Assembly (NCBI GenBank): GCA_037142615.1
Contig: JBAXAI010000059.1
Location: forward strand, 1-10,435
Direction: 5' to 3'
Source: Spirochaetales bacterium
GTDB taxonomy: Bacteria; Spirochaetota; Spirochaetia; JABEVK01
Length of the DNA stretch: 10,435 nt
This document shows, one piece after another, positions 7,768-10,144 of the stretch. Position 1 is the stretch's first letter; every line of letters starts with the position of its first letter. The notes below the pieces were generated by a model. The model did no database searches, had not been told where the DNA came from, and saw nothing but the letters and a program-made list of their open reading frames with translations. A program made the translations under genes and the position numbers.

Positions 7768-10144
7768 ATGAAGATCTCATCGATTGCGCCCTTGGGGGCG
7801 CTTTTTGTCTTGCTGGCGCTTTTCGGCTGTGCCTCGCCGGTCACCGTCAACCCCAGGCGGAACCACACCTGGTGGAACAACGCCAACCGGCATCACCATC
7901 GACCAGTCGTTGTGGGGTCCGTGGGTGCGAATGGACAGGGTTGAAAACTGGTATCTGGCCGCCGACAAGTTGACCAGCCCGATGGGAAGCAATTTCTACA
8001 CCTCGGCCACGCTGACCAAGCTCGTGACTGAGGGTGCCACCCTCGAAGTGACCGCTGATTCGGCCGACATGATTCAGGTCACCCAGGGCAACGACACCTT
8101 CTACCTCTACCGGCAGGCCGACCGCAGCGCCACCTTCAACGGCACCGTGGAGCAGCAGGTGGTGGCCAAGAGTCTGGCACGCTCGGCCGAGCCGCGCAGC
8201 TTTATGTCGGCCCTGCAACTTGCGGTGCAGAGCAAGGACAATCCATCAGATATGCAGACGGTGACCACCGCCATCGATGGCACCTACAAGATCGTCAACG
8301 CCATCGCGGGCGCCGTGTACAAGATCACGCCCAAACTCGTCGACGCGGTGACTAGTGCCCTCAGCGACGGCCCGACCATCGAAGTGGTGGCCGGCGACGA
8401 CGGTCAGGATGTGGGCACGGTGACCATCCCCGACCCGACGGTGAAGTACAACTTCAAGGTGAGCGCCGCGCCGTCGGATAACCCCTATTTGTTCGCCGAT
8501 GGCACCGCCCAGAACGTCACGCTCACCTTCAAGAACGTGGGCTCGGCCCGATCGCTGGCACCCACCTATACTTTGGTCTCCCTCAACGGCAAGGCGACGT
8601 TGGGCGGAACCTTGGTCAATAACCTGAGCACGTTCGAAGCGGGAACCACGCAGACCTTGACCGTGCCAGTCACCGTGACCGCGATCACCACGCCGTTCAT
8701 CGATGTCACCATTGGCGTGACTCTCGACATTTACAACGGGCCGAGTTGGCATGATCGGACCACGGTGCGGTTCTACAAGGATGACAAACTGACGGTGAAC
8801 CTGCGTGCGACAGGAACGGGCTTCGACCATGCCACGTTGCTGACACCCGACCGCCGGGCCATTCCTTTCTCGAGCAACATCATGGGCACCGAGTTGGTGG
8901 TTCCACGTACCGACTCAGGGTATTCGGTAGCGATGTCTGGTGCGACCGCTGCGAGCGAAACCAAGTACGCGTTGTGGATTGGTGCCTCGACCCTCTACTC
9001 ACCGGATCTCACGGCCTACATTGCCCCCGGGTCGTTTGAGCCCAACAATACCCGAGCCGCAGCGACCGGGTTGTATGTCAACGATGCCGCACCTCTCTTG
9101 GGGTACTTGGCTGTCGACGACATGGACTTCTTCGCCATTGGTGCGGCAACCGTCGTCGCTCCCGCCGGCTTGCCAACCCTGAGCGTGAGCGGAAGCACCA
9201 CAAGCCTCAGTTGGAACGCGGCAGCGGGAGCCGAGAAGTACTTTGTGTACAAGAACGGCGTCGCGGTCGATGCGGCTGGAACCACGGCAACGAGCCGCAC
9301 CGGTATTAGTTATTCACCCGGTGACCAGTTTGCCGTCAAGGCCTTTATCGCGGGCAAGGGGTACTCAGCAGGGGGCTTTGTAGTCGAAACCGTCCCGGTC
9401 GCCGGAGGAACCTTCTTCAATGGGACCGCCAATGTGACAGTCAGCAGCTTCCAGATGTCGACTTACGAGGTGACCTCGGGACTGTATCAGTCCCTGACGG
9501 GTAGCAGGCCCAGCATGATGGGAGGCGGCAAAGTCCAGAACCCTGTCGAGAGCGTCACCTGGTACGACGCCGTCGAGTTCTGCAACAAGCTCAGCGACCT
9601 GGCCGGGCTGCAACCCGCCTACACCATCACCGGTCGCACTCCCTCCACCGGGTACCCCATCACGTCAGCAACGGTGACCATGGACATGGCTAAGACCGGT
9701 TACCGCCTGCCTACCGAGGCAGAGTGGATGTGGGCCGCCATGGGCGGTGCCAGCGATGCCAAAGTCGGCGACAACGTCTCGACCGTCAACACCGGGGGCT
9801 ACAACAAAGCCTTCGCGGGCGACAACGGGAGCAACGCGATTGCCAGCTACGCCTGGATCTACGAGAACAGCCCCAGCGGTACGCAGCCAGTCGGCACAAA
9901 GGCACCCAACGAGTTGGGAATCTACGACTTGAGCGGCAACGTCTGGGAATGGAACTGGGACTGGTACGAAACCTACGATTCGTTGCCGACAACCAACCCG
10001 ACCGGAGCGGCCTCGGGCTCGTCCCGCGTGTTACGCGGCGGCAGTTGGTTCAGCAATGCGTCCTACGCGACCGTGTCGAACCGGTACGGCAGCAACCCGT
10101 ACTACCAGAACTACAGCTACGGCTTCCGGGTTGTTCGTCCCTGA
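7768..10144 (+). CDS. Large lipoprotein with a C-terminal FGE-sulfatase (SUMF1)/CLec-fold domain, frameshifted near 7851-7854; candidate DGR target
   Basis: RBS and ATG 7768 give the signal peptide MKISSIAPLGALFVLLALFG-C. The gene body is in the +1 frame (ORF 7784..10144) with FGE motifs [51 protein letters not shown] and GFRVVR. Removing one C gives 791 aa. Confidence 0.85.
10022..10144 (+). other. Candidate DGR variable region (VR) with a 3' invariant/IMH-like end
   Basis: Last ~120 nt of a CLec/FGE gene. Between RGGSW and GFR, 16 of 24 codons are NNC/NNT derivable from AAC/AAT, at spacing typical of asparagine-rich template repeats. No TR or RT is in the window. Confidence 0.7.

Follow-up and report, generated by a model that had tools for sequence, protein, structure and literature searches.

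Two systems provide the closest comparisons for the locus reported here. In the parts of the survey by Wu et al. drawn on here, diversity-generating retroelements (DGRs) containing an HRDC gene form 'Architecture C', represented by Treponema; 11 architectural variants are distinguished among 14 HRDC DGRs, and C-type lectins of the formylglycine-generating enzyme (FGE) type make up the largest class of DGR targets (PMC5758913). For T. denticola itself, the sections of Nimkulrat et al. used here report HRDC genes overlapping the reverse transcriptase (RT) gene, remote targets and leftover targets (PMC4891356). The stretch analysed in this work, hereafter the window, is the whole 10,435 nt of contig C59 from the draft genome (4.27 Mb in 76 contigs, 96.7% complete) of an uncultured freshwater Spirochaetales bacterium. 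We read window positions 10007-10140 as a genuine variable repeat (VR) at the 3' end of a gene similar to T. denticola tvpA, one of four targets of an HRDC-type DGR on contig C55, in a copy that, with a probability of roughly 0.6, is now quiescent. The DGR is a known type, that of T. denticola, having an HRDC gene and remote lipoprotein targets of the FGE/C-type-lectin class (PMC5758913, PMC4891356).

The resemblance to the T. denticola system is extensive. In both, the targets are FGE-type C-type-lectin (lipo)proteins with a C-terminal VR, TvpA being the T. denticola example; an HRDC accessory gene overlaps the RT gene in a cassette that lacks avd; and a single target in cis is accompanied by several remote ones, of which seven have been reported there and three were found here. 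The cassettes differ in gene order, which is target-HRDC-RT-template repeat (TR) here, whereas in T. denticola the accessory gene lies between TR and RT (PMC4891356); the locus therefore has the HRDC gene and the FGE-type targets, some of them remote, of 'Architecture C' as found in T. denticola, but not the same gene order. The host is a freshwater organism rather than an oral pathogen, and the genome holds three DGR cassettes and one target, that in the window, which is frameshifted. With the system of Bordetella phage BPP-1, which acts on Mtd, the locus has in common an adenine-specific transfer of sequence from TR to VR at the 3' end of a gene encoding a C-type-lectin fold, whilst BPP-1 differs in having Avd as its accessory protein and its TR ahead of the RT; in the present system HRDC stands in place of Avd, the TR comes after the RT, and the targets are chromosomal and dispersed. 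Every feature found falls within known DGR variation, the differences being gene order, the freshwater host, a very long covarying hairpin and the presence of three cassettes, and a closely matching DGR may already have been catalogued. General understanding of DGRs is unchanged by this case; it offers a well-resolved environmental example of the Treponema type, with one cassette, four targets and a structured, covarying element at each target.

The variable repeat and its template

The features of the window on which the comparison rests are these:

7784..10144, + strand: body of the target gene, encoding a surface protein that resembles TvpA and ends in an FGE-type C-type-lectin domain (786 codons as listed)
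10007..10140, + strand: VR, 134 nt, homologous to the TR at C55:3437-3570(-), from alignment to the TR
10119..10140, + strand: A-free 3' end of the VR, 22 nt, resembling an initiation of mutagenic homing (IMH) sequence; TR positions 113-134 are without A

The C-terminal 250 residues of the window protein (536-785) match the Pfam family FGE-sulfatase (PF03781; E = 5.1e-40), to which human SUMF1 and bacterial FGE also belong. The best solved relative of this domain is the T. denticola variable protein TvpA (2y3c_A; E = 5.2e-40); FGE structures match it at E ~1e-15, with most of these matches ending at residue 236-237 of the 260 in the query. The catalytic cysteine pair of FGE is placed in its C-terminal segment. 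An initial annotation of the window, made from its sequence alone, had quoted the C terminus of the ORF at 7784-10144 and noted that it lacks these cysteines, and this is borne out: there is no cysteine among the last 45 residues. Given that, unlike FGE, its VR-encoded tail is free of cysteine, the domain is on sequence grounds best regarded as a binding scaffold and not an enzyme.

When window positions 9950-10200 were used as a BLAST query against the organism's own genome, four other copies were found, at 76-86% identity:

C55:5095-5329, - strand: 80% identity
C5:81885-82091, - strand: 82% identity
C55:3437-3571, - strand: 86% identity (the TR)
C41:7513-7724, + strand: 76% identity

The copy on the minus strand at C55:3437-3570, 134 nt long with 35 adenines and no stop codon at its end, is identified as the TR because it reads AAC or AAT at each point where the window and the remaining three copies disagree. 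This is the remote template that the initial annotation had predicted to exist, a near-copy 86% identical to the VR and differing almost only at its own A positions. Homology between VR and TR ends 1 nt ahead of the stop codon of the target. Comparison of each VR with the TR gave the following:

Window VR: A changed at 15/35, non-A changed at 4/99; Fisher p = 2.3e-7
VR of the cis target (C55a): A changed at 18/35, non-A changed at 0/99; Fisher p = 4.9e-13
C5 VR: A changed at 14/35, non-A changed at 1/99; Fisher p = 8.5e-9
C41 VR: A changed at 18/35, non-A changed at 1/99, plus a 6-nt insertion opposite an AAC run; Fisher p = 8.1e-12

Taking the four VRs together, 33 of the 35 TR adenines are changed in one VR or more, against only 4 of the 99 other positions. 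The window VR thus shows the adenine-specific relationship to a TR that characterises DGR targets, as do the other three, in which non-A changes are limited to 0-1 of 99 positions.

The non-A changes of the window VR lie at 10078, 10119, 10126 and 10138. Three are private to it (10119, and the synonymous changes at 10078 and 10126), and none is private to any of the other three VRs. At 10138, corresponding to TR position 132, all three non-adjacent VRs have T, and the TR and cis VR have C. The end of the repeat reads GGCTTCCGG...CGTCCC in the window and GGCTTTCGG...CG(T/C)CCC in the other three copies; three other genes share it, as had been anticipated, in a form that differs slightly between copies. 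A TAC codon at 10118-10120 stands opposite ATC in the TR, a substitution that adenine changes alone cannot give, and an earlier TR version may have served as template for the window VR. Two proteins from other assemblies described below, P0010 and P0003, have Ala at the codon that is TCC in the TR and Tyr at that which is ATC; neither can be made by adenine changes alone, and judging from these sequences the TR itself probably differs between strains. In the C41 VR, which ends at 7663, two added codons (CTC TAC) are found opposite the AAC run of the TR; indels in multiples of 3 bp opposite AAC runs are described in the DGR survey (PMC5758913).

The codons that had been listed as variable correspond largely to AAC or AAT in the TR (TTC AGC AAT, TAC, AAC, TAC GGC AGC AAC, TAC TAC, AAC TAC AGC, and the TCC at 10022), whilst the TCC at 10061-10063 proved to be fixed scaffold and the last TAC is that opposite ATC. 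The proposal that a TTA codon had arisen from AAA was mistaken, since TTA stands in the TR, and the template peptide suggested in the initial annotation agrees with the TR but for three residues, having K instead of L and N instead of S and of I. A DGR VR, and most of its unseen template, can therefore be read from a codon pattern alone.

The minus strand of C55 carries, in order, the cis target with its VR, the HRDC gene, the RT gene, the TR and a PDDEXK_2/Rpn-family gene:

C55:7996-5135, - strand: cis target (C55a), 953 aa, with signal MKISSIAPLGALFLLLALVSC
C55, between the cis target and the RT gene and overlapping the latter, - strand: HRDC accessory gene (HRDC E = 5.9e-17)
C55, with the TR directly after it, - strand: reverse transcriptase (RVT_1 E = 9.5e-18; motifs IGNLTSQ and YMDD)

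GxxxSQ is a hallmark of DGR RTs. An RT of the DGR clade, together with an accessory gene, is hence found beside the TR, as the initial annotation had supposed; the accessory gene is HRDC and not the avd it had named, there being no avd in the C55 cassette, although no genome-wide search for this gene was made. The nearest named relatives of the RT are mostly from metagenome-assembled genomes of Treponema and other Spirochaetia. All 80 related RT loci encode G-x3-SQ...YxDD, and 58 of the 80 have an Asn-rich, TR-like stretch no more than 1.5 kb after the RT, an order also seen on contig C67 of the present genome.

No stop interrupts the RT reading frame across the TR, and the resulting 385-aa ORF (C55:3397-4554, - strand) has a tail that matches FGE-sulfatase. 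In the related loci such read-through is in frame in just 7 of 58 cases, with a stop in the same frame in 24/58 and the two in other frames in 27/58. Therefore the C55 read-through is probably incidental, and the joint ORF was rejected as a meaningful feature.

Dispersed targets and the hairpin that follows them

Four genes are targets of the C55 cassette, namely C55a in cis and the non-adjacent genes in the window, on C5 and on C41. Non-adjacent targets are recorded for 45/372 DGRs in the survey as consulted, with seven such targets in T. denticola (PMC5758913). On its contig, which contains no RT, the C5 target has over 72 kb on either side. In two assemblies its protein (P0009 and P0010) is identical at 801 of 815 residues, and all 14 differences fall within the last 40 residues, the first 775 being identical. 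As these alleles differ only in the VR, they indicate recent rewriting in trans and are direct evidence that the DGR works in this manner at a sister target of the window gene; the dispersed, multi-target system proposed in the initial annotation is thereby upheld.

An orthologue of the window protein, P0003, is 84% identical to it and has an intact signal peptide; the two differ at 13 of the 15 codons that encode Asn in the TR and at 4 of the 30 other VR codons. Diversification is thus evident both at C5 and between the window gene and P0003. The C41 protein is identical on 3 contigs, so stasis alone is no mark of a dead target. A scan of metagenome contigs with an A-masked VR pattern returned a single match, L024, which is 100% identical to C41 and so gives no data on variation. 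No near-identical orthologue of window positions 9400-10300 was found in 40 related genomes (the best being 75% identical), which precludes comparison of the VR across species at the DNA level.

On the BPP-1 model, the TR would be transcribed and the transcript copied by the RT into cDNA with misreading of adenines; this cDNA would then replace a VR that has the matching A-free 3' end and the long hairpin beyond it, with the outcome that 15 Asn codons of the ligand-binding face would be rewritten. The hairpin of the window is located as follows:

10160..10243, no strand assigned: long imperfect GC-rich hairpin with apical stem CCCCGC-N4-GCGGGG (RNAalifold, 31 predicted pairs)

About 100 nt past the stop codon are common to all four VRs before the sequences diverge, and within this a hairpin of ~85 nt, beginning 16 nt past the stop, follows each of the four. 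Amongst these four sequences, both sides have changed with pairing kept in 14 of the 31 pairs, whilst no conservation is seen in the loops (TCAC, AAAG, CCAG and TCCA). The genome holds precisely four copies of the core, GGAGAGNGGGAATCG, one after each VR, and a covariance model recovers all four at 111-134.5 bits, with that of the window second best at 121.7 bits and nothing else above 31 bits. The hairpin is absent after the TR. The sole match in Rfam was Xoo8, which scored 16.6 bits where the gathering score is 90 and was taken as chance. Two weak matches to the model were found in 82 related loci; one, L032, is directly after another VR, and the other, L071, is not. Folding of the 140 nt after VR-like or TR-like matches in related loci was compared with that of 40 mononucleotide shuffles of each:

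After VR-like matches: n = 51, median z -4.25, z < -3 in 36/51
After TR-like stretches: n = 67, median z -1.96, z < -3 in 15/67

BPP-1 is alike in having an A-free VR end and then a GC-rich inverted repeat of which the structure, and not the sequence, is conserved (PMC3240598). That element differs in size, the BPP-1 hairpin having an 8-bp stem and a GRNA loop, with a spacing of 4-34 bp between VR and hairpin among phage DGRs (PMC3240598), as against 31 pairs over ~85 nt here; GC inverted repeats after the IMH are noted in 34% of DGRs in the survey (PMC5758913). The window has the combination of an IMH-like end and a GC inverted repeat after its VR that the TR does not have, and by analogy the pair is predicted to act in homing, a pattern that would fit the need of BPP-1 for an IMH and a GC hairpin or cruciform. 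The hairpin may instead, or as well, be a terminator. Just past it, at 10242-10267, is a perfect 26-nt GC-rich palindrome private to the window copy. In public run X3, the sequence matching window positions 10120-10308 departs from the window by 15 substituted letters and 3 gaps over 188 nt, whilst the VR piece itself shows no difference; populations therefore differ in the downstream element.

State of the window copy

The 5' end of the target gene carries three further features:

7643..7666, + strand: (CCCT)6 tetranucleotide repeat ahead of the target start codon (genome repeat count)
7768..7944, + strand: short ORF with a lipoprotein-type signal peptide, MKISSIAPLGALFVLLALFGC; ATG at 7768, Cys codon at 7828-7830, TGA at 7942-7944 (lipobox judged by eye)
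7851..7856, + strand: frame break in a PGGTT repeat, where alignment to the cis paralog C55a shows a 17-nt gap

The signal-peptide ORF is homologous to the N termini of the cis target and of P0003, and does not share the reading frame of the gene body. The product had been described as a lipoprotein; the signal peptide is indeed present, but in a different frame from the remainder of the gene as assembled, and the gene calls of two assemblies begin at an internal MDRVENWY. Data on variation come from assembled contigs only, of four runs from four studies (X1, X2, X3 and X5). The frameshift sequence is ungapped in contigs of X1 (7676-8202) and X5 (7719-8107). Over the VR, contigs without a single difference were found in X1 and X2 (9937-10308), X5 (9839-10180) and X3 (to 10122), and in a second assembly the window protein is identical at 736 of 737 residues (P0008 against P0002), the one difference lying outside the VR. 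Hence diversification of the window VR between samples, anticipated in the initial annotation as excess variation at the listed codons, was not seen in the contigs of any of the four runs (in X3, to 10122) or in the second assembly. Loose ends of contigs at 10048 were considered as variants of the window VR and rejected; they have another scaffold (…TGCCGCGC…) and were read as VRs or TRs of other organisms.

Runs of at least four CCCT units occur twice in the 4.27-Mb genome, as the six units of the window and as seven upstream of the cis target (C55:8020-8047). The (CCCT)n tract may be a slipped-strand expression switch. Both tracts are preceded by the same conserved sequence, and contigs of the public runs appear cut at 7600-7675.

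That the window VR was at some time written by the C55 DGR is close to certain. The alternative that no retroelement is involved, and that the four C termini belong to ordinary paralogs under diversifying selection, can draw on the fact that the target genes are paralogs, window and C55a being about 82-83% identical in DNA across their alignable parts. Selection could not reach a base-specific pattern defined relative to a copy that is not a target, however, and the non-coding TR holds A at 33 of 37 varying positions and lies directly after an RT; with the two C5 alleles differing only in the VR, we consider this explanation scarcely tenable. It is also improbable, if less so, that the window VR was written from a different template, either an older TR version or the TR of an unassembled or lost DGR, and that the present C55 TR does not act on it. 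The TAC opposite ATC, beyond the reach of adenine changes, is in favour of this, as are the Tyr and Ala codons of P0010 and P0003, which suggest strain-specific TR versions, and the assembly, at 96.7% completeness in 76 contigs, leaves some room for it. Against it, 130 of the 134 window positions are compatible with the C55 TR, and the genome has only three RVT_1 loci, those on C55, C67 and C3; the TRs of the latter two, tried as cognate templates, were rejected as unrelated to the window VR.

The more serious question is whether a copy of this origin is still live. A VR fixed across samples, its private non-A changes and the frameshifted signal peptide together make it likely that the window copy is now quiescent or decaying. 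Several points weigh against this. Assembled contigs drop rare variants, so that VR diversity at low frequency is possible, and the four studies may sample one lake population. In X2 the frameshift site is spanned, among the contigs listed, by a C55a-type piece alone, leaving the frameshift unconfirmed there, and parts of the 5' end in both X2 and X3 are covered only by C55a-type pieces, which are uninformative as to absence. Among catalogued DGRs, 23% have non-A differences (PMC5758913), which need not be a sign of decay. No RNA run holding the window stretch was found, and C59 ends 291 nt past the stop codon, within a repeated PDDEXK_2 gene and short of any link to the cassette. Finally, the A-free end and hairpin are both kept, and therefore the copy is possibly still competent. 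The corresponding alternative, in which the window gene remains a live target in trans, with homing rare or regulated or one variant selected, and with a frameshift that is recent, reversible or partial, is a lesser but substantial possibility. The two elements are as well conserved here as at the other three VRs, the rewriting of C5 between assemblies demonstrates that the machinery works, and C41 cautions against equating stasis with death. What tells against a live target is that the VR is identical in four of four runs and likewise in a second assembly, whose single residue difference lies elsewhere, that three non-A changes are private to this VR when none is private to the others, and that window, X1 and X5 alike have the signal peptide in a frame other than that of the body. 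We therefore retain the reading of a genuine VR in a copy that is probably quiescent.

Since the A-free end and hairpin are perfect in the window copy, which nevertheless appears not to be rewritten whilst C5 is, a second gate on targets might be proposed. In this speculative and rather unlikely scheme, the A-free VR end and ~85-nt hairpin would be a portable address tag, specific to the cassette, by which an HRDC DGR without Avd finds its dispersed targets; the tag would be necessary but not sufficient, and the gate, for instance expression through the (CCCT)n leader or the frameshift, would pick among targets. If true, nature would have supplied in the two genes an on/off pair with which to dissect how cellular DGRs choose their targets. 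One remote target caught in rewriting and another apparently retired, in the same genome, are in any case a useful contrast through which to ask on what the competence of a dispersed target depends.

Other cassettes and neighbouring genes

The three RVT_1 loci of the genome represent three DGR cassettes. The two besides that on C55, and the gene that follows the target in the window, are:

C67:378-4085: second DGR cassette, target-HRDC-RT-TR, with its own VR/TR pair (2268-2412 / 3944-4085)
C3:~51140-52872: third DGR cassette, with a VR/TR pair of a different C-type-lectin type beside the RT
10374..10435, + strand: first part of a PDDEXK_2/Rpn-family gene (MPYSPLTHDSVFLHVFGEPEG...), truncated where the contig stops

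A near-perfect hairpin of ~90 nt follows the VR on C67. PDDEXK_2/Rpn-family genes are found within 4 kb of five of six DGR-related loci, including those on C55, C5, C41 and C3, compared with 3.4% of random positions. Despite this strong association in its own genome, the family was rejected as a general DGR partner, with none found at the 80 related RT loci. One such gene directly follows the window VR and another directly follows the TR; the former is homologous to the latter (MPSSPMTHNSVFLHVFGEPEG; C55:2390-3184; PF12784 E = 2.2e-30), with 78% DNA identity over 94 nt. Across the fragment at 10374..10435, contig depth rises 4- to 10-fold.

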